Part shown: one piece after another, positions 6,637 to 19,061 of the stretch
Position numbering within the stretch: position 1 is the stretch's first letter
Layout of the letters: each line of letters starts with the position of its first letter
DNA from: an uncultured Gemmatimonadota bacterium
GTDB taxonomy: Bacteria; Blakebacterota; Blakebacteria; Blakebacterales; Blakebacteraceae
Direction: 5' to 3'
Assembly (NCBI GenBank): GCA_964576115.1
Contig: CAZNUA010000006.1
Coordinates: 62,001-126,000, forward strand
Length of the DNA stretch: 64,000 nucleotides
Program-made: the position numbers and the translations under genes
The notes under the pieces: model-generated
What the model was told of the DNA's origin: nothing
The model's input: the letters and a program-made list of their open reading frames with translations, nothing else
Databases searched by the model: none

Positions 6637-9600
6637 TCACCGCAACAGAAGCATCTTGCGCACCAGGACCGTCTTGCCGACCTCGAGGCGGTAGAGGTAG
6701 ATCCCCGTGGCCACCTCCCGTCCGGCTGTGTCGGTTCCGTTCCAGGTCACGGTGTGCGTTCCGGCTCCCATGATACCGTCCACCAGCATCCGAACTGTCT
6801 GCCCCCGGACGTTCATGATCCTCAGACGGACCGGTTCGGAGGCCATGTCGACCGGTATGCTGAATCTGATCCGGGTCGAGGGATTGAAGGGGTTGGGAGC
6901 GTTGCCGAGCAGTTCGACTCCCCCCCGTTCGACCGTCAGCGGTGCCTGACCCGGGGCGAGCCGGTACCACCCTCCCCCCGGTACCGGTCCGGAGGCCGCA
7001 GAGCCGCTGAGCCGTACCCCGCCTGCGACCGGAGTCCACTCTCCGTTGACCCAGCGGTCGAAGTGGTACGCACGGTCCGGTTCCGATAACTGACGCAGCG
7101 GTAGTCTCAGGATCGCTCCGCGGGCCGGACCTTCCCAGCCGGCCGGACCGAGGGCCACGACCGGGGCCCCGAGGACGGAACCGCCTCCTGACGGAGCGCC
7201 CGGCAGACCGGCCGGAACCGTGCGATAGGGAGTCAACAGCAGGGTCGTGCCGTTATGCCCGCCGGTGGGGACATCGAGGGTAACGGGACCAAGATCGCAG
7301 AGAGCGCTCACGTACGCCGTTTGACCCGCTCCAAAAGAGGCTGAACCGATGTTCAAGCTCGCGGTATCGCTCAGGCCGCCGGCACCGTAACGGTCATACC
7401 CGACGGCATCGATCGTCAGCTGGGTCGCCCCCCCCAGCGAGCGGGCGGGGTCGACGATCCCGTACCCGCCCAGGGTGCTCTGCCAGAGTAAAGCGGTTGC
7501 CGATCCTCCGGAAGGTGTCAAAGTGCCCGTACTGCGCCCGTGATGCAGGGGCTCATCTCCGACCATCCAGACTTCGATCTGGTCGGGAAAGAGCGGATGT
7601 TGCAGCAATCCCAGTGCGATCTCGGGGGCGGTGACATCGTAATATGCGAACTCGGCCCGGAACATCCAGTCGCCCAGGTAGTGCTCGCCATTGCCGAATT
7701 CAATCCCGCCCAGTTCGGTCCAGATCTCGAGCCCCCCGCCCCTGACATAGCTGCGACGCAATTTCTGGTTCAGGTCGGAATACCCCAGGGCATGCGAACC
7801 CATCCTGATGCTCACCAGGTACTCCACTCCGGCCCCGGTCGAATCGAGAACGGTATCGATCGGATGATAGATCCAGCCTTCGTTCTGGAACTCGGGGATA
7901 ACCGTGGTGGTATAGACAGGATTCTCGTTGACCACATATACCCCATCGGAATCTGCGATTTCGACCATGGTGTGAACTTCGAGTTCGACGCTGTTACCGC
8001 CCATGAGAAAAACCCAGAATCCGGTCAGGCGGGCCGGCGTGACTTCGGGGGTGATCCGCAGACCGGCATGAACCGACGCGTTCCCGAAGGTTATCCGTAC
8101 AAGTGGGCGCCCGTTTTCGTACTTGACCAGACCTTCATCGAGCTGGGTTCCGGTCGCACTCACGCGGAAAGAACCGCTCGGCGCAACCGAGGCATTTGTC
8201 AGTACTACCGCCGCCTCGTCATAGGTGCTTCCCAATCCGGTGACCGCGGCTCCGGTCGGGCCCAGGTCGCTGACAGAATAGGTGCCGGAGCCGATCTTGA
8301 TCAGCCGGGCGGTCACACCGGTGGGCAGACCGTCGGGAAAGGAGAGGTCGAGGTCGGCCGCGTTCCAGTACCTGATCGCGGTCGCCCCGCGTGCTTCCAG
8401 GGCAATCGTTTCGGTTGCCGGCAGGAGGTTCTCGTGCCGTTCCGGCTCGAGCCAGGGCACGACCGGGGCGACATCAAAACGCGCGTCTCCGTCCTCGTCG
8501 CCGCCCAGATAGATCGCCGTGACGAAATCTCTGTAGGCGGTCGCGAAATCGGCCCCGCCGGCTCCTGACTCCGGATCGTCAAAAGCGGCCTCGATGCCGG
8601 CCACTCCTCCGAGCGGATTCTCCGCCAGGCACCGGATGAAGTCCTCCCCGAACCGCGTCCCGAGGTAGTAGCTCCAGAGCGAGACCCGGGCGTAATCGTC
8701 CAGAACGCTGTGGAACTGCCGCCAGGAGAGCAGATCCACGTTGGGGCGGGCCACATACCCGGCAAATCCGCGCAGACCGTACCCGCAGATAAAGGAGGCG
8801 TATTCGGAGAGTCCCTCGTTCACGGCCGTGACTTCATCGGGATCGTTGCCCCAGTGGATGAGGTGCTGAAACTCGTGGGCGATGGTCGATTCGACGAAAT
8901 CGTGGACGTCTTCAGTCTCCTCGGGATCGGAACTGTTGGCGTAGCCCACCATCCGGCTGTTCACATAGAGCATCTCGGTGTGGTTGGAGCGTTGTTTGAT
9001 GCCGCCGCCGAAATCGACCGGATCGGCGAACTGGTTCACGGGGTAAAAATACCCGGCGTAGAAAGCCGTGCCCGTCGTACCGCTCGCTTCGGTATCGATC
9101 TGGGTCATCAGCACCACGATCCGGGAGTCTCCGTCCACATCGGGTACCTCCCCGAAGACACCGGTCACATTCTGGTATATTCCGACCGATGAGTTGCGCG
9201 GGCTGTTGGGACACGCGACTTCGAAGGCTTCCAGAAAAGCGTCGACGTCATCGTCTGAGACCACGTCGAGTTCATCCTTCTCGACGAAGTAGTAGGCGTT
9301 CGTGCCTACCGCCCGGCATTCGGCCGTGATCTTCTCCTGCGTGTAGGGGAAGCTGGTTCCGGCGCTGAAATTCACCACCCAGAAATCCTTTGTATCTCCC
9401 ACGACATACGCCTCATTTTCACGCACCCGCACGGTGCCGGCCCCCTCTCCAGCCAGAGCCCGCGGTGCCAGTCGGGCATACACCTCGGCGAAAAGCGGGG
9501 TGGCGTCTATGAAGGGCGGCAGGTTCGTGACCGGCTTCTGCGTGCGTGGCAGGACAAGCCGTCCCGAGGGCACCGTCTCGATCTGCTGCTGGGCGGCAGC

Positions 9601-9663
9601 CGGGGTGGTAAGGACAACCCATGCGGCCAGCAGTATCACTGTTCTGCAGGTCGTTCTTTTCAC
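6637..9663 (-). CDS. Secreted zincin metallopeptidase (M30/hyicolysin-like) with C-terminal FlgD-Ig/T9SS type A-like sorting domain
   Basis: Signal peptide (AAA-Q); 'TIAHEFQHLIH...NEGLSE'; 'PDVDGDSRI', 'AGYFYPVN'; C-terminal 'NAPNPFNPST..WNGTDTAG..TGIYLYRLEV..RKMLLLR'. Confidence 0.8.
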   Translation of the reverse strand: MKRTTCRTVILLAAWVVLTTPAAAQQQIETVPSGRLVLPRTQKPVTNLPPFIDATPLFAEVYARLAPRALAGEGAGTVRVRENEAYVVGDTKDFWVVNFSAGTSFPYTQEKITAECRAVGTNAYYFVEKDELDVVSDDDVDAFLEAFEVACPNSPRNSSVGIYQNVTGVFGEVPDVDGDSRIVVLMTQIDTEASGTTGTAFYAGYFYPVNQFADPVDFGGGIKQRSNHTEMLYVNSRMVGYANSSDPEETEDVHDFVESTIAHEFQHLIHWGNDPDEVTAVNEGLSEYASFICGYGLRGFAGYVARPNVDLLSWRQFHSVLDDYARVSLWSYYLGTRFGEDFIRCLAENPLGGVAGIEAAFDDPESGAGGADFATAYRDFVTAIYLGGDEDGDARFDVAPVVPWLEPERHENLLPATETIALEARGATAIRYWNAADLDLSFPDGLPTGVTARLIKIGSGTYSVSDLGPTGAAVTGLGSTYDEAAVVLTNASVAPSGSFRVSATGTQLDEGLVKYENGRPLVRITFGNASVHAGLRITPEVTPARLTGFWVFLMGGNSVELEVHTMVEIADSDGVYVVNENPVYTTTVIPEFQNEGWIYHPIDTVLDSTGAGVEYLVSIRMGSHALGYSDLNQKLRRSYVRGGGLEIWTELGGIEFGNGEHYLGDWMFRAEFAYYDVTAPEIALGLLQHPLFPDQIEVWMVGDEPLHHGRSTGTLTPSGGSATALLWQSTLGGYGIVDPARSLGGATQLTIDAVGYDRYGAGGLSDTASLNIGSASFGAGQTAYVSALCDLGPVTLDVPTGGHNGTTLLLTPYRTVPAGLPGAPSGGGSVLGAPVVALGPAGWEGPARGAILRLPLRQLSEPDRAYHFDRWVNGEWTPVAGGVRLSGSAASGPVPGGGWYRLAPGQAPLTVERGGVELLGNAPNPFNPSTRIRFSIPVDMASEPVRLRIMNVRGQTVRMLVDGIMGAGTHTVTWNGTDTAGREVATGIYLYRLEVGKTVLVRKMLLLR

Positions 9664-12600
9664 TTAGAACTCCGGTCCCAGGGCGATGTACCAGCGGGGT
9701 TTGCCGCTGATCGCGTTCAGGGTGTTCTTCCAGGCCACGTCGAACCTCAGGATAAAGAACCCGAGGTTCATGCGCGCGCCTAAACCGATACCGCTCCTGA
9801 TGTCTTCAAAAGCGGGCAGGAGCCCATTCCAGTTCAGCAGTCGTACGGTAGTGCCGGCATTCCAGGCCACACCCAGATCGCAGAAAAGCGCTCCCTGAAT
9901 GTTGCTGATGCGCAGGGGCAGAGGCCAGCCCAGGGCCAGCAACCGGATGAACTCGAAACGCAGTTCCAGGTTGGTCAGGGCAAAGCGGGAACCGCTGAAT
10001 TCGTAAAAGTCGTAACCCCGCAGGGGGGACTGAAAGCTGGCGAAATACAGGCTCTCGATGTCATAGAGTTCTGCTCGCGAATGACGCGGTCCCCACCAGT
10101 ACCCGTTTCCGCCCAGATAAAACCGCTGCGGTTCCCGTCCTTCGCTCACCCCCCCCGCCCCGCGCAGCACGAGCGTGAGTCCTTCGTCCAGAGACAGATA
10201 GGAACGATAGTCGGCGCTCAGGGTGGTGAATCGCAGCGTTTGATCTATCCAGGGAGGACTGGATGCCAGACCGATGCGGAAACGACGGCCGTTGATGTAT
10301 CCGGTTACCCCGGGCACGGTGTTGTCCCCGACCAGACTCAGCTCGGGGATGATGAGCTGACGGTACACGCGTTCGGCCGGTCCGGTCAGATAGATACGCC
10401 GCAGAATACCGATGAAACGGGTCTGCAGATCGAGGCGCAGGAAACGGCTGAAAGGCCAGGAGAGATAGAGCAGACCGCCCCCGGTCCGGTCGCCATAGAG
10501 CGATCCGGTGCCGTCGTAGGCGTAATAGAGGTAATTGTACCAGAACAGACTCGCCCCGACATTCAGGCGGCTTCCGAAGCCGGTCCAGGTGAACTGGTAA
10601 TTCGAGTTTTCGAGAGAGTTCCAGAGGCTCACCTGGGCCGATATGCGGTGGTTACCCAGAATATCGCTCATTTCCATATAGGAAGCGCCCGAGAGGCCCC
10701 AGTAGCTGTTGTAGCCGGCGTTCATCAATACCAGATCGGGCTCGAGGCGGAGCCGGTAGGGGTGTTCTTCACTGGCCAGCACCCCATGACCCAGCTCGCG
10801 CGTGAGCGGTATCTCTTCGCGCAGCTGGGCGCTGGGTTCGCGATAGCGGGAGGGGACGGGACGCGAAGGAGCCCGCAGGCGGGAAAGATCGAGCGGAAAG
10901 CGGGTGGAATCGCGCCGGGCGGGCAAAGCGGGCTGCACCGCTTCGGCGAAACGCTCCAGTTCCAGCTGCTGGACCAGACGGGTCGGGGCCGGTGCGCCCC
11001 TCACCGGGCTGTAGCGCGGAGCGTCCAGGAGCCAGAGATCGTAGCCGCCGTCATTGAAGGCGCTGAAGACCAGTTCGTCGGTCGCCGCACAGTACGAGAT
11101 CGCCTCCAGACCCGTGAGCACGTCGGTGACCGCCCGGATGTCACCGGTCGCCAGATCGCAGCGATAGAGATTGCGAATCCCCGATCGGAAGGAGATGAAG
11201 AAGAGTTCGTCGCTCTTCCGCCCCCAGTGCGGGTGCGTGTCGTCGAATGTCCCGGTGATGACCGGAAGGGTTCGGCGATCGGCTCGATCCAGCTCCATGA
11301 TCCAGATATTCCGGTCCCCGAAAGAAACCGGCAGGTCGAGGTGCCGGGGCTGCCGGCCGGGCAGGACCCTATCCGAAGCAAAGGCCAGACGGGTGCCATC
11401 GGGGCTCCAGGCGGGATTGCTTTCGTAGTCCTTCGAGTGCGTCAGGCGGGAGAAATCCCCACGGGAAAGATCGCAGAGGTAGAGATCGGACCAGCCGTCG
11501 CACACGCCTACGAAGGCGATCCGGCCCCCGTCGGGACTCCAGGCCGGCTCGTAGACGCCATCCAGCTCTGGATCGAGGATACGTTGGACCCGGCCGTTTT
11601 CGGCATCGACCACATAGATCCGATCCCGCACACCCCCCTTGGCAGCCACCGCCACCCGCTCGCCGTCCGGGCTCCACGACACGCCGCCCCGCAGGATATG
11701 CATCTGCTCGAACTGGCCGGTCCGCTCTCCCTTGCCCAGGCGGGTGATGACCGTCCGGTCTGTGGTCGAGATGATGTAGAGATCCATGAACCGGCTGCGG
11801 TTCGACAGGAAGGCCAACCGCTCGCCCTCCGGACTCAGCGCCGGAAAGACGTTGTACTGCGAGCCGTCCTCGTGATGGTCGGTCAGGGGCCGGGCGATCT
11901 CTTCGGGATGCGAACGCCCCTCGATCTCCGACCAGTAGGTCTGCTGCAGGAAACGTTGCCAGTCACGCGAAATCAATTCAACCGTCCGGCCGACGGTCGC
12001 GACCAGGGCCTGCTCGATATCGGGCACGAGACGCAGGCTCATTACCAGATCGCCGATCCGGCGCTGACCGTACGTCTGGGCCAGAAAGTGAAAGAAGGAC
12101 TGCCCGCCCTTGTAGGCCAGGAAACCGCCGTGAATATCCTGCAGTTCGGGCAGATATCCGTTGATGACCGCATCGCGCACGAAAGACTCGGCATCGGGAT
12201 CCCAGCCCATCGAGCCGTATTCGGCCAGCCCCTCGACGAACCAGATCGGCAGACTACCCGACTGGATCTGGCTCATCAGGCCGCCGATTCCCCGGCCGTA
12301 GATCATGGCCATCGAAACGGCGTGCACCAGTTCGTGGTTCAGAACGTGCCGGAAATCCGCATAGGAACCCTGGAAAGGCACCACCACCCGGTGCTTGAGG
12401 TATTCGGTGAAGCCTTCGATCCCCTCCCGGAGAAGGTTCGGAATCACATTGGTCTGCTGGAAGTCGTTATGGGAGTTGTAGAGAATGATCGGAACCCGGC
12501 GGGTCAGATCGTAGCGCCAGGCGCGGCGAAGTTCGTCATACACCTGCTCGGCGGCTACGGCAGCGAAACGGGCGATCTCTTCCCCGCCCTGGTGGTAATA

Positions 12601-12744
12601 GATGGTGAAGTGCTCGGTGGCGAATGTCGTCCAGGTAAAACGCCGGTACTGGACCTTGTTCTGTCCGAACCAGACGTCCTGGGCGGCCAGAGGCGCCGGG
12701 ATAGACCCGGCCAGGAGTATCAGGATGACGAAAGCCCGTTTCAT
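9664..12744 (-). CDS. Outer membrane protein: peptidase MA-like zincin + PD40/TolB beta-propeller + BamA/TamA (Omp85) barrel
   Basis: 'FGQNKVQY', 'HELVH..WFVEGLAE', several 'PAWSPDG..AF' repeats, Omp85 loop-6 motif 'PLRGY', C-terminal beta-signal 'WYIALGPEF'. Start 'MKRAFVILILL' at 12744. Confidence 0.85.
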   Translation of the reverse strand: MKRAFVILILLAGSIPAPLAAQDVWFGQNKVQYRRFTWTTFATEHFTIYYHQGGEEIARFAAVAAEQVYDELRRAWRYDLTRRVPIILYNSHNDFQQTNVIPNLLREGIEGFTEYLKHRVVVPFQGSYADFRHVLNHELVHAVSMAMIYGRGIGGLMSQIQSGSLPIWFVEGLAEYGSMGWDPDAESFVRDAVINGYLPELQDIHGGFLAYKGGQSFFHFLAQTYGQRRIGDLVMSLRLVPDIEQALVATVGRTVELISRDWQRFLQQTYWSEIEGRSHPEEIARPLTDHHEDGSQYNVFPALSPEGERLAFLSNRSRFMDLYIISTTDRTVITRLGKGERTGQFEQMHILRGGVSWSPDGERVAVAAKGGVRDRIYVVDAENGRVQRILDPELDGVYEPAWSPDGGRIAFVGVCDGWSDLYLCDLSRGDFSRLTHSKDYESNPAWSPDGTRLAFASDRVLPGRQPRHLDLPVSFGDRNIWIMELDRADRRTLPVITGTFDDTHPHWGRKSDELFFISFRSGIRNLYRCDLATGDIRAVTDVLTGLEAISYCAATDELVFSAFNDGGYDLWLLDAPRYSPVRGAPAPTRLVQQLELERFAEAVQPALPARRDSTRFPLDLSRLRAPSRPVPSRYREPSAQLREEIPLTRELGHGVLASEEHPYRLRLEPDLVLMNAGYNSYWGLSGASYMEMSDILGNHRISAQVSLWNSLENSNYQFTWTGFGSRLNVGASLFWYNYLYYAYDGTGSLYGDRTGGGLLYLSWPFSRFLRLDLQTRFIGILRRIYLTGPAERVYRQLIIPELSLVGDNTVPGVTGYINGRRFRIGLASSPPWIDQTLRFTTLSADYRSYLSLDEGLTLVLRGAGGVSEGREPQRFYLGGNGYWWGPRHSRAELYDIESLYFASFQSPLRGYDFYEFSGSRFALTNLELRFEFIRLLALGWPLPLRISNIQGALFCDLGVAWNAGTTVRLLNWNGLLPAFEDIRSGIGLGARMNLGFFILRFDVAWKNTLNAISGKPRWYIALGPEF

Positions 12745-12796
12745 GATCGTTTCACCGCGCGGTGACCGCAGGAAGAACGGCTGCAGGCGGCCCCTG

Positions 12797-12826
12797 TTGA
12801 CAACCGCCCGTCGTTCATCCGACACT
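12797..12826 (+). promoter_or_regulatory. Putative sigma70 promoter (TTGACA-N18-GACACT), probably leaderless
   Basis: Perfect -35; the -10-like hexamer ends 6 nt before ATG 12833; no SD. Confidence 0.4.
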
Positions 12827-12832
12827 GGCCTC

Positions 12833-13201
12833 ATGCGAGGCCTCCTCCCGATCATGCTGCTGGCCGCCGGGCTCACGGTTGCCTGTACCCGCAAAGCCCC
12901 CGCCCCCGCTCCCGAGGCCGGGCTGGTTCAGCTCTACTGCGATCTGGCTCTGCTGGCCGGCGATGCCGGACAACCGCCGCCCGACTCGGCCAGGGCCGCA
13001 ATATTCACTGCCTACGGTACCACCCAGGCGGCCTTCGAAGCCGCTCTGCAACCCTATCGGGACGATCCCCGCGGGTGGGTGCGCTTCTTCCAGGCCGTAC
13101 TGGACACGCTTCAGGAACGCATTGGAACGCCGCCACCGCCGACCGGATTCGTCCGACCGGGTCAGGGCAGCCGCGATCGCCCTCAGCCGCCCGGCGGGTG
13201 A
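12833..13201 (+). CDS. Small helical lipoprotein (DUF4296-like)
   Basis: Lipobox TVAC; 'DSARAAIFTAYGTTQAAFEAALQPY..P..W..FFQAVLDTL' resembles the DUF4296 pattern. Confidence 0.6.
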   Translation: MRGLLPIMLLAAGLTVACTRKAPAPAPEAGLVQLYCDLALLAGDAGQPPPDSARAAIFTAYGTTQAAFEAALQPYRDDPRGWVRFFQAVLDTLQERIGTPPPPTGFVRPGQGSRDRPQPPGG

Positions 13202-14412
13202 TTATCGTACCAGACTTCGTAGATTGCCCCCAGCAAAACGTCGCCTTTGCGCAACGCTGTTTCATCGAGATACAGGTTTTGATACGGAAAGTACCGGTAT
13301 CCCCCCGTCGCGGTATTCGGCAGAGTCGTCCCGCTCGGCTGGCTGTTGTCGGCTACGTATTCGATCTGTGTGTCCTGGCGCCAGACATTGAATGAGTTGA
13401 GCAGGACGATGGCCGGTTCGCCGACCCAGGTGTTGGCCAGGTCCCAGATCGCCCGGTAGGTACCCGCTTCGGCAGTCAGGGTGAGGGTCAGTTCCCGGGT
13501 GATGATCGGCCGCAGGATATCGCTCGAGGCCCGGTCGTTGTAGCCCGGCATGACCGTCGGGATAAGGGGGATGGGATCGTCCATACCCGCCAGGGTCTGG
13601 GTATAGGATTCCCAGAGATCCGCCAGATCCTCGATCACGCCCGATCCGGCCGGGTACCCGTCGTGGATCGTCAGGGTGGCCAGATCGATACCCGTCACCG
13701 CGTCCATGGCACTGATGCGGCTGAGATTGGGAACCGCGGAAGCGCCCCAGATGACCTCGTCGCCTATCAGATAAAAAGCTCCTCCGCCGGTACTGTCGGC
13801 GTAGGCCTGGCGCACGGCGTTCAGGGCGATCCGGGCATCCCCTGAGATTTTGTGCGTCTGACGCATGACGATGACCGGCAATCCGCCCAGGTGCAGGTAG
13901 TTCGGTAGACTGAAGAAGGAATCGTGGAAGAGCAGGAGATGGCTCAGCAGGCTGTCACGGGACGTCAGGCTGAGACCGAAACTGCCCGTTTCGGAGTCGC
14001 CGGCCAGGATGGTGGGAGTCTCGTACAGAATGCACCAGTCGATCAGGTCGAAAGCAGCGTCGGGGATCAGATAGTCGGTCAGCGTTTCGTGTCCCCAGGT
14101 TCCCGGACCGCGCCAGGCGACGCAGAAGAAATCGATCCCGGCCCCGGTTGCCCAGGTCACATGCTGCGAGATGACGCCGGCATCACGGCTAGAATATTCT
14201 CCCAGCAGCGGATGCTGTTCGCGAAGCAGACGTACCCTCAGATACTCCCCCGCCCAGTTGCGATTATTTCCCCAGCCCCCGTCTCCATCAGGACCGAGAC
14301 CGTCGCAACCCGGCGAGGCGAAAGCGATCAGAACCGCCGAGGCGACACCCGTCAGGGTGACGGCCCGGCGACTGTAGAACCGGCGTCGAGCTGTTCGTGT
14401 CCGGTTGAGCAA
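13183..14412 (-). CDS. Glycoside hydrolase family 99-like lipoprotein (apparently permuted; catalytic Glu pair substituted)
   Basis: 'PLLGEYSSRDAGVISQHVTWATGAGIDFFCVAW', 'PTVMPGYND', 'NSFNVWRQDTQIE'. Arg-rich (Tat-like) signal ending SPGC. Start TTG 14412 with GGAG SD (alternative GTG 14457). Confidence 0.75.
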   Translation of the reverse strand: MLNRTRTARRRFYSRRAVTLTGVASAVLIAFASPGCDGLGPDGDGGWGNNRNWAGEYLRVRLLREQHPLLGEYSSRDAGVISQHVTWATGAGIDFFCVAWRGPGTWGHETLTDYLIPDAAFDLIDWCILYETPTILAGDSETGSFGLSLTSRDSLLSHLLLFHDSFFSLPNYLHLGGLPVIVMRQTHKISGDARIALNAVRQAYADSTGGGAFYLIGDEVIWGASAVPNLSRISAMDAVTGIDLATLTIHDGYPAGSGVIEDLADLWESYTQTLAGMDDPIPLIPTVMPGYNDRASSDILRPIITRELTLTLTAEAGTYRAIWDLANTWVGEPAIVLLNSFNVWRQDTQIEYVADNSQPSGTTLPNTATGGYRYFPYQNLYLDETALRKGDVLLGAIYEVWYDNHPPGG

Positions 14413-14425
14413 ACCTTCTCCGTCT

Positions 14426-14566
14426 CTACGCGATCGGTCCGGGGGTGTGATCGACACGCCACCGGTGGCCGCGGATCAGAGTCCGGATGACGGCTCCCAG
14501 ACCCGCCAGTGCGGCCATTGCCGCGGCGATCCAGGCCCACCATCCATGAAGAACCCTGCTGATCAT
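14426..14566 (-). CDS. Small hydrophobic protein, 46 aa (below the ORF-track cutoff)
   Basis: Strong SD AGGAGGTG (14576-14583) 9 nt before ATG; MISRVLHGWWAWIAAAMAALAGLGAVIRTLIRGHRWRVDHTPGPIA, with one TM-like segment. Confidence 0.5.
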   Translation of the reverse strand: MISRVLHGWWAWIAAAMAALAGLGAVIRTLIRGHRWRVDHTPGPIA

Positions 14567-14791: not shown

Positions 14792-14867
14792 GGGGCTGTA
14801 GCTCAGATGGGAGAGCGCCTGAATGGCATTCAGGAGGTCAGGGGTTCGATCCCCCTCAGCTCCACCA
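14792..14867 (+). tRNA. tRNA-Ala (GGC)
   Basis: GGGGCTG..CAGCTCC-ACCA acceptor stem with G3:U70, anticodon GGC, TTCGATC T-loop; 76 nt. Confidence 0.98.
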
Positions 14868-14920: not shown

Positions 14921-16171
14921 TCAAAATCCCGTCACCTGTCCCATGAAGAGGATCGTGCCGGAGGCCTGCTCGCGGATGACGAACAGGAAGGGCCGATCTA
15001 TATAGATATTCAGGCTCGGGGTGACCGACGTCAGGGCGATCTCGACCACCGTCACGGCGGCGGCTTCGGTCCCCTCTTCGTCGACATCCACGAAGGCTTT
15101 CTGTTTGACCCGGGAGATCAGCAGTCCCCCCGGCCCGCCGGTACGCATGCGTTCGAAGTCGGCTGATCCGGTAAAGGCGATGCCCATCCCCAGTGCGGTG
15201 AGTACATCGTTGAGGGTGAATTCGTACTCGAGGATGAACCGGGGAAATTGCAGGAGATCCACTGTGCGTGTCTGCAGGGCATTGACCAGAGCCTGCCAGG
15301 TGTCGCGGTCGAGCCCATCTACGAACTCGGTCAGGCTCATCAGGCCGACCGGCATGATCACATCCATGCAGAACAGGGAGTCCCCGTAGGGCAGCTCGAC
15401 CATCTGGAGCATCTCATCGGCATAATACCGCAGGTCGGCATCGCCCAGACGCATGGCCGGAACCTGCGATGTGCTGCCGTCGAGATTGTGGAAGGGCCGC
15501 TCGTCTGTCAGGTCGGGATCGAACTGCCAGGTCCAGTCCCCCAGGAAATAGAGGGCGTTGATCAGGAACATGACCGTATCGGGTTCGATCGGGGGGGTGA
15601 TGATCTCGGTGATCTTCTCGTGCGTTTTCTCTGCGACCCAGGCGTTGATGGTCGGTGCGGCCGAGGCAGCCGAGAAATCGAGAGCCTGGATGACGGCGTC
15701 GAAACAGGTCTGGTTGGTGGCCACGAAGTCGGGCGCGATGTTGAATCCATCGCGGTACCAGATCGAGTTGGCGATCTCGAAGGTCACTTTCGGATCCAGG
15801 CCGGTAAGCAGGTCTATCAGAGAACGGTAGGCCTCGTTGATCTCCGCCTCGGTCAGACCGGATAGTTCGAGAGCCTGCTGCATGGCCGTATGGGTTTCGC
15901 CGTTGGCGCCGTTCAGAGTCATACCGAGGGCCATGGAAGCACTCAGCGGAGAGAGGAAGATATTCTCGGCTCCGACTTCGGCGGCGTGGGCCCGATAGAG
16001 CTTCAGACTGAAGAGGTTGCCGCTGGAAACGACCCTGGTCTCGCTCGGGGTGAGGGCGCGCGGCAATACTCCCCGCTGGGCGCCGGTGGGAGTGCGGGTA
16101 CACCCGGCCAGGGTGACAATGAAGGCCAGCGTGCACCCCGCCATACGGCGGCACCGAAGGACGCGATTCAT
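14921..16171 (-). CDS. Serpin (serine protease inhibitor), predicted lipoprotein
   Basis: 'NIFLSPLSASMALGM', 'LINALYFLGDW', hinge/RCL 'EEGTEAAAVTVVEIALTS', 'DRPFLFVIRE..GTILFMGQV'. Lipobox LAGC; AGGTGA SD before ATG 16171. Confidence 0.95.
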   Translation of the reverse strand: MNRVLRCRRMAGCTLAFIVTLAGCTRTPTGAQRGVLPRALTPSETRVVSSGNLFSLKLYRAHAAEVGAENIFLSPLSASMALGMTLNGANGETHTAMQQALELSGLTEAEINEAYRSLIDLLTGLDPKVTFEIANSIWYRDGFNIAPDFVATNQTCFDAVIQALDFSAASAAPTINAWVAEKTHEKITEIITPPIEPDTVMFLINALYFLGDWTWQFDPDLTDERPFHNLDGSTSQVPAMRLGDADLRYYADEMLQMVELPYGDSLFCMDVIMPVGLMSLTEFVDGLDRDTWQALVNALQTRTVDLLQFPRFILEYEFTLNDVLTALGMGIAFTGSADFERMRTGGPGGLLISRVKQKAFVDVDEEGTEAAAVTVVEIALTSVTPSLNIYIDRPFLFVIREQASGTILFMGQVTGF

Positions 16172-16187
16172 CTCGTTCACCTGCCTC

Positions 16188-18836
16188 TCATCTGACAATC
16201 AACATCTTGCGCGTCAGCGCCCGGCCGTCGACCTCGAGGCGGTAGAGGTAGACGCCGGAACGCAGGTTGTGCGAGCTGACGCTCTCATAGTGAACCCCGG
16301 CCCCGAGGTGACCGTCCACCAGAGTCCGCACCAGCCGCCCCCGCACATCGTAGAGGGCCAGCCTGACCCGGGCCCGCTGCGGCAGCTCGTACCGGATCAG
16401 GGTCCGGCCGTTGAAGGGATTGGGGTAGTTCTGCATCATGGCGACCGTTTCGACATCGGTATCCTCGATATCGTCGTCTCCACTCGAAGCAAGACGTACC
16501 AGGGGGCGCTCCCAGACCCCCAGACCGTGGGTGACGGCCCGCAGGGCCCGGTTGTCGCGCGAGACGCTCAGATCCATGATCAGCGCCCCGGTGGGCATGC
16601 CCTCGGTAAAAGGATACCAGTTCTCCCCGTCGTCGGGGCTGAACCAGACGCCGAAATCGTTGCCGACATACAGGCAATCACTGTTAAACGGATCGATGAC
16701 GAGAGCCGAAGTGGGAATATCGGGCAGAAGACCCCGGTCCAGATCCTGCCAGCTCGACCCGGCGTCGGATGTCTTGAACAGGTGCGATGAGCCGAAACCG
16801 GATAAGATCACATAGGCATCCCGGTCATCGTGACGGCCGGCCTGTAGATCGACCGGGTAACGGTCGGGAAGCGAGCCGGTCACGTTCTGCCAGGTCTCGC
16901 CCCCGTCGGTGGTGCGATGCACCCCGGCCCGCTGTACGGCCGGTACCGTGGCCGCCCAGACCACGTCGGGATCGCGCCGGTAGACCCCGATCGAGAGAAT
17001 CGGATTCCGGTCCAGGGGAGAGGCCCAGCCCGGCACATGCCACAGGACGCCCCCGTCGGTCGAGCGCCAGAGCTGTTCGCGACCGGCATAAATCAGGTCG
17101 GGATCGGTCTCGGCCTGCTCGAAAGGGGCCACGAAACAGACATCGCCCTCGTTGCGCATGCCGCTGTTGATCTGTTGCCAGGAATCCCCGTCATCGGTCG
17201 AGCGGTAGATGTTGCCGTACTGCGTCGAGCCCAGAAAGGTCTCGGCGTCGGTGGGAAAGAGCCCAGAATAACCGCCGTCGCCGCCCAGACAGCGCTGCCA
17301 TGCGTCGTAGCCGCGGTAGATCACGGTGGAGTTGTCCTGCAGGCCGCCGATGGCCACGGTCGAGTCATCGGGGGCCGACGCGAATCCGCCGTAAAACTGG
17401 GTCGTCTGGTAGCCGCCGTTGAGTCCCCGGAAGGTCCAGCCGAAATTGGTGCTGCGGAAAACACCCCCGTCGGTACCGAAAAAGAGCAGATCGGGATTGG
17501 TGGGATGGCGGGCGTAGCAGTGAATATCGGCGTGCATATAGTTGCTGTCACCTTCGGGCTGACCGGGTTGGGTGATACCCGGATACCAGTCGCTGTGGGA
17601 GGTCCGGTGGAAGGTGCGTCCCCCGTCCGTGGAGACGTAGGAATACACCCCGCTCGCTACGACCTGACTGGAATCGGCGGGGTGGACGGCCACAAAGTGC
17701 GAGAACCATCCCTGATAGCGGGCGATATCGGGATAGTACATCCAACCCGAACTCAGGTTTTCCCATGTCTGTCCGGCATCGAGGCTGCGGTAGAGATCGA
17801 CCCCCTCGCGGTCTTCATCGCTCAGGGCGTTGGCCACGTCGGCGTAGATCACCTCGGGCGCAGTCCGGTAGATATCGAGCATCGTCTTGCCGGTCCAGGT
17901 GGCGGGCAGCCCGGTGGTGAGTTCGTTCCAGGTATCCCCTCCGTCGGTGGTGCGCCAGATACCGGCATCGGCAGGCGTGCCGAGATTGCCGCAGGAAGCG
18001 TAGATCGTGTCGGGCCGGTCGGGATGTATGGCCAGGTCGACCGCCATCGGGATGGACAGAACCTGCTGCCAGGTGTCGCCCCGGTCGGTCGAACGATACA
18101 CACCCTCGCTGGTGCCGGCGAAGATACGCGAACTGTCCTGCGGATCGATATCGAGGGCCAGCACCCCCCGGCGCTGATCGTACGACCAGTCGAGGCATTT
18201 CTCCCACGTTGCCCCGCCGTCGCTGGTGCGCAGGATTCCGATGCCATACGAACCGCGCGTGGTCCGGATATAGAGTCCTCCGATCGAAGTCTCTTTGCCG
18301 TAGACCTCCCCGGTACCGATGTAAACCCGGGCGGTGTCGGCGGGATCGATAGCGATGGCATTGACCCCCAGAACGGGGTAGCCGGTATCGACGTACCGCC
18401 AGGCCCGGGCCCCCACCCCGGCGCTGTCGCTGCGCCACAATCCCCCGCTGGCCGCACCGGCCAGGATGATGTCGGGATCCAGAGGATTGATCGCCAGGGC
18501 GATCGTCCGGCCGCCAACGTTCTTCGGACCGATCGGTCTCCAGGGAGCCGGCTCCTCGTAACCGGTGATGGCTGCGCGCAGGGTTCGGCCGGCAGCGATC
18601 AGGGGCCGGGTGCGCTGCCAGGCCCGCTGGTATCGCTCGGGGGGAAGTTCCGGACCGGGATAGGCCCGCTGGGCGTGCAGGAAGTGCAGGCCGGCCATGG
18701 CCCCGCTCAGAGCGTGGCGGTCGACGGGTTCGGTAGGGGGTGGTGACAGGACCGGTATGATGAAGAGCACGATCCCGACCGCTGCTGCGAGAACAGCCGC
18801 CGCAGCGACCGGAATCCTGCGCCCATTCACGTGCAT
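16188..18836 (-). CDS. BNR/Asp-box (VPS10/sortilin-like, GH74-like) beta-propeller protein with T9SS type A-like C-terminal domain
   Basis: About 11 S/TxDxGxTW repeats; 'WRPIGPKNVGGRT', 'MHADIH', 'GGLQDN', 'GGDG'; CTD 'QNYPNPFN..SGVYLYRLEV..TRKMLIVR'. GGAGG SD before ATG 18836. Confidence 0.85.
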   Translation of the reverse strand: MHVNGRRIPVAAAAVLAAAVGIVLFIIPVLSPPPTEPVDRHALSGAMAGLHFLHAQRAYPGPELPPERYQRAWQRTRPLIAAGRTLRAAITGYEEPAPWRPIGPKNVGGRTIALAINPLDPDIILAGAASGGLWRSDSAGVGARAWRYVDTGYPVLGVNAIAIDPADTARVYIGTGEVYGKETSIGGLYIRTTRGSYGIGILRTSDGGATWEKCLDWSYDQRRGVLALDIDPQDSSRIFAGTSEGVYRSTDRGDTWQQVLSIPMAVDLAIHPDRPDTIYASCGNLGTPADAGIWRTTDGGDTWNELTTGLPATWTGKTMLDIYRTAPEVIYADVANALSDEDREGVDLYRSLDAGQTWENLSSGWMYYPDIARYQGWFSHFVAVHPADSSQVVASGVYSYVSTDGGRTFHRTSHSDWYPGITQPGQPEGDSNYMHADIHCYARHPTNPDLLFFGTDGGVFRSTNFGWTFRGLNGGYQTTQFYGGFASAPDDSTVAIGGLQDNSTVIYRGYDAWQRCLGGDGGYSGLFPTDAETFLGSTQYGNIYRSTDDGDSWQQINSGMRNEGDVCFVAPFEQAETDPDLIYAGREQLWRSTDGGVLWHVPGWASPLDRNPILSIGVYRRDPDVVWAATVPAVQRAGVHRTTDGGETWQNVTGSLPDRYPVDLQAGRHDDRDAYVILSGFGSSHLFKTSDAGSSWQDLDRGLLPDIPTSALVIDPFNSDCLYVGNDFGVWFSPDDGENWYPFTEGMPTGALIMDLSVSRDNRALRAVTHGLGVWERPLVRLASSGDDDIEDTDVETVAMMQNYPNPFNGRTLIRYELPQRARVRLALYDVRGRLVRTLVDGHLGAGVHYESVSSHNLRSGVYLYRLEVDGRALTRKMLIVR

Positions 18837-19061
18837 CGTGACCTCCCCAACCGGGCCGACGGTTGCGTGGCGCCTGATCGCAGGGCAGAGACACACTGCG
18901 ATCCGTCTATAGAGAATACGTACGAGACGGTCGCGGCGTTACGCCCTGTCTGGACGATCGTGTCCGATTGCACCCGCCGGATGGTGTAACATTGACTCGG
19001 GCGATCCGGAGGCCGAGTTTGTGGGCTCGTTTCTGATGTGTGTCAGGTACGGGAGGACGGC

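Follow-up and report, generated by a model that had tools for sequence, protein, structure and literature searches.

The 64,000-nucleotide stretch analysed here (the window), from an uncultured Gemmatimonadota bacterium, encodes on its minus strand a protein that is very probably a natural circular permutant of the GH99/GH71/WbsX-like (beta/alpha)8 barrel, lipid-anchored and exported, with the barrel closed by a C-terminal strand. The chain would begin in the loop after strand 1 and run through helix 1 and strand 2 to strand 8 and helix 8, and its last 20 residues would then supply strand 1 (LLGAIY, followed by EVWYD), closing the barrel between strands 8 and 2. The permutation is real at the level of the sequence, is well supported by the predicted structure, and is family-wide. 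Residues are numbered throughout in the 409-residue form that starts from TTG 14412, unless the 424-residue form is named. The gene and its segments are listed below, together with the evidence from a hidden Markov model (HMM), from an AlphaFold2 (AF2) model and its predicted local distance difference test (pLDDT) scores, and from DSSP.

13183..14412, minus strand: gene of the permuted GH99-like protein, 409 residues; the homologue P0001 begins at TTG too.
14305..14412, minus strand: predicted signal peptide ending at the putative lipobox Cys36 (...LIAFASPGC), a hydrophobic stretch and then the Cys; pLDDT below 50.
14269..14304, minus strand: Gly/Asp-rich tether, residues 37-48, leading from the lipid anchor to the fold, the new N-terminus; pLDDT below 50 for residues 30-50.
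13258..14268, minus strand: barrel core from helix 1 to helix 8, residues 49-385, from HMM positions 17-349 (248 bits) and DSSP on the AF2 model.
13360..13395, minus strand: 'SFNVWRQDTQIE', residues 340-351, counterpart of the GH99 catalytic motif 'SFNEWHEGTQIE' in the alignment to MANEA wild type and E404Q.
13249..13275, minus strand: last barrel helix (alpha 8), residues 380-388, LYLDETALR, a DSSP helix in the AF2 model with pLDDT 96-98.
13204..13239, minus strand: relocated strand 1, residues 392-403, VLLGAIYEVWYD, recognised by matrix, HMM, the DSSP strand at 393-398 and eight invariant residues.
13186..13203, minus strand: short C-terminal tail NHPPGG, the new C-terminus; pLDDT below 50 for residues 406-409.

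There is no strand 1 between Cys36 and 'PLLGEYSS' in the window protein. The sequence after Cys36 reads DGLGPDGDGGWGNNRNWAGEYLRVRLLREQHPLLGEYSSRD, the tether is followed by 'NNRNWAGEYLRVRLLREQHPLLGEYSSRD', and the protein ends in 'LLGAIYEVWYD' after the last helix (chain end ...YLDETALRKGDVLLGAIYEVWYDNHPPGG, also given as '...GGYRYFPYQNLYLDETALRKGDVLLGAIYEVWYDNHPPGG'). The same order is shared by all 26 close homologues (48-100% identity), as a check proposed with the sequence-only reading had anticipated: the Cys is followed by 'NRNWAG.YLR..L.P.Q.P.LGEYSS' without an N-terminal strand 1, and 'LGAIYE[VI]WYD..PP' stands at the C-terminus. The eight distant relatives that were read (28-34% identity) all have strand 1 at the N-terminus, where 'LLVGAHYYLWFP' or 'VGAYYYPWY' sits 20-35 residues ahead of 'P.LGEYSS', and their chains stop after the last helix. 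The N-terminal pattern of the normal order is 'LLVGAHYYLWFP...YLRARL.P.Q.P.LGEYSS', with the chain end just past the 'Y.GYG..YLD.L' helix. Joining the C-terminus of the window protein to its mature N-terminus rebuilds a normal N-terminus ('...YEVWYDN' + 'NNRNWAGEYLRVRL', against 'YYPWYRPNSHWAGTNLRDNL' in P0031). The sequence-only reading had reported that strand 1 was missing from the N-terminus and that a segment resembling it lay at the extreme C-terminus, after the last helix; both observations hold, and the coordinates of that segment are those of residues D391-Y402 (13207..13242).

To score the tail, 91 normal-order domains were cut from 154 other relatives and served as the basis of both the HMM and a strand-1 matrix of 13 columns. 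On this matrix the tail reaches 18.8 bits, and no other 13-mer of the protein exceeds 2.4. Among 79,384 13-mers taken as a null from the six-frame open reading frames (ORFs) of the window, the highest score was 6.7, and none of 5000 shuffles of the window protein reached 18.8 bits. The HMM splits the protein into two pieces: positions 17-349 align to residues 49-385, and positions 3-17 align to residues 390-404, so that the 15 C-terminal residues match the N-terminal positions of the normal-order model, as had been predicted. The cut site is the loop after strand 1, and the main alignment starts at residue 49, which corresponds to HMM position 17. The idea that 'GW G' at the mature N-terminus is a remnant of strand 1 ('PWY') was considered and dropped, the overlap on the HMM being one position at most.

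The tail is also strongly conserved, with 8 of 16 positions invariant, compared to 84 of 374 across the mature protein. Its 16-residue window ranks 7th of 359, and only windows that overlap the strand-8 motif rank higher. Across 48 aligned permuted and normal-order sequences, P68, L70, Y73, H84, D218, S340, N342, and E351 are invariant, and E219, N292, W344, and D347 are nearly so. The core blocks P.LGEY, GDE, PG.ND, and S[FW]N.W..DT.IE are all present in the window protein.

The AF2 model, built on the 48-sequence alignment, has a mean pLDDT of 87.1 and a predicted template modelling score of 0.84. DSSP assigns barrel strands to residues 95-100, 125-130, 178-183, 214-218, 238-240, 283-287 (split), and 335-338, and, after the last helix (380-388), a six-residue strand to residues 393-398 with pLDDT 97-98. 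Residues 37-94 contain a single-residue bridge but no strand, and a total of eight strands is reached solely by counting the C-terminal one. Strand 1 is not filled from N-terminal residues in the model. Homologue order, the split of the HMM and the predicted strand together support the earlier proposal that strand 1 has moved to the C-terminus.

Foldseek matched the model to GH99 structures at E-values of 1e-13 to 8e-15, and then to GH71. The VIA-align Z-scores were 29.6 for 5NGW, 25-26.5 for GH99 and MANEA, 18-19.5 for GH71, and about 15 for GH5 barrels. The order-preserving structure alignments span residues 47-51 to 391-393 of the model and start at residue 39 in 5NGW, 54-56 in BtGH99 and BxGH99, and 117-118 in MANEA. 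This leaves unmatched the last strand of the model and the N-terminal residues of the solved chains, which are taken to hold their strand 1. From the strand count and the aligned ranges, strand 393-398 would lie between strands 8 and 2. A position inside the barrel is suggested because a closed barrel of seven strands would have no edge free to pair in a six-residue ladder, and because the link from helix 8 has the length of an ordinary alpha-beta turn. The strand could instead complete the barrel of a neighbouring subunit in a domain-swapped dimer or oligomer, since terminal barrel strands can swap between subunits and a monomer model is blind to the difference between intra- and inter-chain complementation. 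However, only four residues (K389-V392) separate helix 8 from the relocated strand, and the monomer models place a terminal strand in the window protein with high confidence and likewise in P0058, a protein from another lineage that is described below. A swap is therefore considered clearly improbable.

Several results weigh against the permutation. The HMM piece at positions 3-17 is not significant alone (-1.2 bits, independent E-value 0.28), and doubling the sequence adds just 2.5 bits for the window protein, compared to 22 bits for P0058. A search with the 28-residue tail alone against the sequences of solved structures found no GH99 chain, its sole match being an SH3 protein at E 0.92, and this search is uninformative because the tail is too short. 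Finally, we infer the pairing of the C-terminal strand within the barrel from the strand count and the aligned ranges. The short tail, with its insignificant HMM match and its failure to find a GH99 chain, might accordingly be an add-on to a seven-strand barrel, such as a sorting signal, an outside strand or a partner-binding peptide, with a convergent likeness to strand 1. This is very improbable, as the matrix score lies far above every null, and the cut is exact, with N404 and N49 both falling on HMM position 17 and the normal N-terminus rebuilt free of gaps. In addition, the N-terminal segment offers no alternative strand, and P0058 ends in an almost normal strand-1 consensus.

A profile of the family retrieved 2579 relatives at E <= 0.001 from 1.84 billion representative proteins. 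Among the best 150 of these 2579 matches, the C-terminal strand of the family was present only in one cluster at 50% identity (P0013) and in the fragment P0045, and nearly all other matches cover only positions ~42-382. One copy of the gene was found in nine of the ten species genomes of the window's phylum, matched to residue 407-409, and the tenth genome is 63% complete. The genome collection contained eight family loci, all in metagenome-assembled genomes labelled Gemmatimonadota or 'bacterium', and in each of them the stop-to-stop frame closes no more than 12 residues past 'WYD'. The only match to the permuted protein within the window's own genome, a draft of 144 contigs, is the 13183..14412 gene itself, and a normal-order paralogue is absent from this draft. 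The draft state of the assembly could point to an artefact, such as a frameshift, a misplaced start or a partial tandem gene. Set against this are the permuted order in 26 database proteins from several sources, the in-frame stop after the strand in eight independent loci, the presence in nine of ten genomes of the phylum, and the lack of a strand-1 motif in the open frame upstream of the start, which leave a vanishingly small chance of an assembly or gene-calling error.

Other candidates for a permuted order, four proteins among the best 150 matches, were rejected. P0091 and P0162 start after strand 1 but are seemingly 5'-truncated calls with a different C-terminal domain, P0130 also starts past strand 1 and its chain stops immediately behind the last helix, and P0182, which had been flagged as starting after strand 1, has the normal order. 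None of the four contains a C-terminal strand 1. Proteins from three Flavobacteriaceae loci (L010-L012) are 25-27% identical to the window protein, contain the motif 'SFNDWN.GTQ[VIL]E' and end soon after it; a scan with the strand-1 pattern, the only search made for it there, gave no match in them.

P0058, a singleton of 372 residues, shows the same arrangement of the termini. It has a signal-like N-terminus without strand 1 and a normal 'SFNEWYEDSQLE' motif, and it ends '...HPDTLVGAYYYLWY'; the end 'TLVGAYYYLWY' is near the consensus of strand 1 in the normal order. It keeps the normal 'NEW.ED' catalytic motif, and its AF2 model (mean pLDDT 92) has a terminal strand at residues 363-368 after the last helix. 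A motif scan and a reading of the termini identified no other permuted protein among the 111 from its search, and a scan of metagenomes for its DNA retrieved only relatives at <=34% identity. P0058 may have been permuted independently at this site, or its gene call may be incomplete. In the core tree, the window family forms a clade with 100% support that is sister to the normal-order proteins P0039-P0041 (Shimodaira-Hasegawa-like approximate likelihood ratio test support, SH-aLRT, 94), while P0058 is placed inside a separate clade of normal-order proteins (SH-aLRT 96).

Tandem GH99-like domains exist in P0036, with four domains, and in P0037 and P0038, with two, joined in the manner 'YLDIL-linker-VGAYYYPWYG'. 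For this reason, the most likely origin of the permuted order would be a tandem duplication that was trimmed at both ends. On the other side, no relic of a second copy was recovered when the flanks in the window and in the eight loci were searched by HMM (all E-values above 0.9), and a search for longer or tandem close relatives came back empty, which is weak evidence. The tandem proteins were also rejected as the nearest relatives of the family, as their high profile rank is a sum over domains; when domains are scored singly, the single-domain proteins P0039-P0041 come closest among those of normal order.

Both its fold and its sequence assign the window protein to the GH99/GH71/WbsX-like (beta/alpha)8 superfamily. 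In Pfam, it matches PF16317 (GH99) alone, and marginally so, with 34.3 bits against a cut-off of 33 (E 1.8e-08) and a good match limited to residues 82-131 of the 424-residue form. The window protein had no reported match to PF14307 at E <= 1; this domain is precomputed for the family members P0013 and P0026 and for all eight distant relatives. NCBIfam returned no family for the window protein. The best solved relative by sequence is 5NGW (E 3.9e-12, residues 81-367 of the 424-residue form), followed by MANEA and the Bacteroides GH99 proteins, and a language-model atlas gave the same GH99/GH71/WbsX set. Two defining features nevertheless set the protein apart from GH99 proper, namely the catalytic pair and the strand order. 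Judged from its sequence, it would not be a GH99 endo-mannosidase and is not to be filed as a GH99 enzyme, because both catalytic glutamates are replaced. The label GH99 is too narrow for it.

The glutamates of the GH99 motif 'NEWHEG' serve as the general base and acid, and the E333Q and E336Q mutants of BxGH99 are reported to be inactive (PMC6055899). Alignment to MANEA wild type and E404Q places Val343 at the general-base position and Gln346 at the acid position of the window protein. Among the 26 proteins of the permuted family, none has a glutamate at the base position (D in 14, A in 5, G in 3, S in 3, and V in 1), and only three have one at the acid position, which is to say that the acid glutamate is absent from 23 of 26. 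In 148 motifs from other relatives, a glutamate is found at the base position in 134 and at the acid position in 141, with both present in 134. The normal-order sister clade P0039-P0041 also lacks the base glutamate, having F, G, and G at this position. Because the sister clade has lost it too, the loss of the base glutamate probably preceded the permutation. The solved structure 5NGW is likewise without both GH99 glutamates and reads 'sfnnwnigtqie' at the motif. Going by these motifs, a sizeable branch of the 'GH99-like' proteins probably does not use GH99 chemistry.

The residues at the catalytic ends of the strands are strongly conserved (Y130-E131, G217-D218-E219, T240-G241-x-D243, P289-G290-x-N292, N342, W344, D347, and E351), as are Y398-E399 and Y402-D403 on the moved strand. 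Since these pocket residues have been kept whereas neither GH99 glutamate has, the most likely role of the protein is to bind, and perhaps to cleave, a cell-envelope glycan by non-GH99 chemistry. As a rough estimate, an enzyme with a rewired site has a little less than an even chance, a non-catalytic glycan binder comes second with a chance in the same range, and something else has a small one. Against this view of the function, the gene context is not a polysaccharide-utilisation locus.

A further possibility, which we regard as rather unlikely, is that the permutation and the rewired site belong together. Both GH99 glutamates beside strand 8 have been lost, and the family has gained an invariant glutamate, E399, at the catalytic end of the moved strand, where it has 'YEVWY' and the normal-order relatives have 'YYPWY'; with strand 1 neighbouring strand 8, E399 could now serve as the catalytic base. 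As a second strand of this reading, the same cut would have arisen twice, the other time in P0058. The first part is opposed by P0039-P0041, which lost the base glutamate without gaining a glutamate on strand 1. The second part is opposed by the approximately unbiased (AU) test: forcing all permuted rows together cost 7.3 log-likelihood units, and a single origin was not rejected (AU p 0.367). If E399 were the base, these proteins would make up a new family of glycosidases, core to an uncultured phylum, in which a catalytic residue has migrated, and if the cut did arise twice, the site would be a preferred breakpoint of the fold.

The likely export of the permuted protein rests on its N-terminus, where a basic stretch is followed by a hydrophobic stretch and then by Cys36. 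Counted from an in-frame GTG at 14457, the ORF (13183..14457, minus strand) spans 424 codons, and TTG 14412 was chosen as the start since it is used by the database homologues. Cys36 is invariant in all 26 homologues, while the lipobox of the window protein itself, 'ASPGC', is atypical. From these features, the permuted protein is probably a lipoprotein.

The closest solved match is PDB 5NGW ('OpGH99A' or 'glycoside hydrolase-like protein'), with a root-mean-square deviation of 2.8 over 301 residues and 23% identity. It is taken to have the normal order, with strand 1 assumed to be among the residues that its chain has ahead of residue 39. The literature searched contained no paper on this protein, and the papers listed for GH99-like, WbsX or PF14307 proteins held nothing useful. 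The GH99 proteins BtGH99 (4ACY), BxGH99 (4AD1), and human MANEA (6ZDC) have the same barrel, aligned over about 275 residues at 18-22% identity, and share the blocks 'P.LG.YSS.D', 'PG.ND', and 'SFN.W...TQIE' with the window protein. They differ in having the normal strand order and the catalytic pair, E333/E336 in BxGH99, where the window protein has Val343/Gln346. The normal-order GH99-like and WbsX-like proteins (PF14307 and PF16317; for example P0039-P0041 and P0028-P0035) are 28-34% identical to the window protein over the whole core and have the invariant 'GDE', 'PG.ND', and 'DT.IE' blocks in common with it, but their strand 1 comes right after the signal peptide and they have no C-terminal strand.

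The GH70 glucansucrases are a natural permutation of a glycosidase barrel relative to GH13. That event is of the same kind, with the chain starting elsewhere on the barrel ring, but it concerns a different family and a different cut; in the GH99-like protein the cut is minimal, strand 1 alone having moved. Natural permutations of glycosidase barrels are already known. No description of a circular permutation in GH99 was found in the literature searched, in agreement with the sequence-only reading, which knew of none. A term search of the main text of the 2026 CIRPIN survey gave no mention of barrels or glycosidases. Natural examples of circularly permuted (beta/alpha)8 barrels are uncommon, and this is a very clean one, in that a single strand has moved, the cut is exact, both orders are extant, and an entire lineage is fixed for the permuted one. 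It offers a useful natural test of how such barrels fold and close, and of how permutations arise. It is also a warning for annotation, as the family model matches just above its threshold and relatives are automatically named 'endo-alpha-1,2-mannosidase' despite the lost glutamates and the altered order.

The gene neighbourhood is conserved between the loci. In all eight, the permuted gene precedes a small ORF on the opposite strand and then a gene for a 1076-residue protein with Peptidase_MA, PD40, and Omp85 domains. A gene for a 1008-residue FlgD_Ig protein comes next in six of the eight; of the remaining two loci, one has a short match to the FlgD_Ig protein elsewhere, and the other ends inside the Omp85 gene. 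The loci come from kindred genomes, so the common gene order alone is no sign of a functional link. The permuted gene is single-copy, near-universal in a small uncultured phylum and always adjoins the gene for the giant Omp85/peptidase protein, and so the protein may mark a lineage-specific envelope function.

In the window, the gene for the 1076-residue protein (9664..12894, minus strand) encodes an unusual fusion of Peptidase_MA_2, PD40 beta-propeller repeats and a C-terminal Omp85 barrel, and it is followed by the gene for the 1008-residue protein with a FlgD_Ig domain (6637..9663, minus strand). The small ORF (12833..13201, plus strand) encodes about 122 residues from Met78 of the 12602..13201 frame, has a lipoprotein-like start 'MRGLLPIMLLAAGLTVAC' and matches no Pfam family. 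The two genes are convergent, and the small ORF shares 19 bases with the 3' end of the permuted gene. A tblastn match to the small ORF was found in the same place in all eight loci at 37-63% identity, although part of this conservation may be an antisense shadow of the 5' end of the neighbouring gene.

A tRNA-Ala(GGC) gene (14792..14867, plus strand) lies upstream of the permuted gene, and past it the window encodes a full-length bacterial serpin (14921..16198, minus strand; PF00079, E 2.6e-104) with a signal peptide and a lipobox-like start 'LAGC'. The serpin was not found in any of the family loci searched. The adjacent gene (16188..18896, minus strand) encodes a 902-residue propeller of the BNR/sortilin type with a C-terminal sorting domain for type IX secretion (PF18962), which suggests that the organism has a type IX secretion system.

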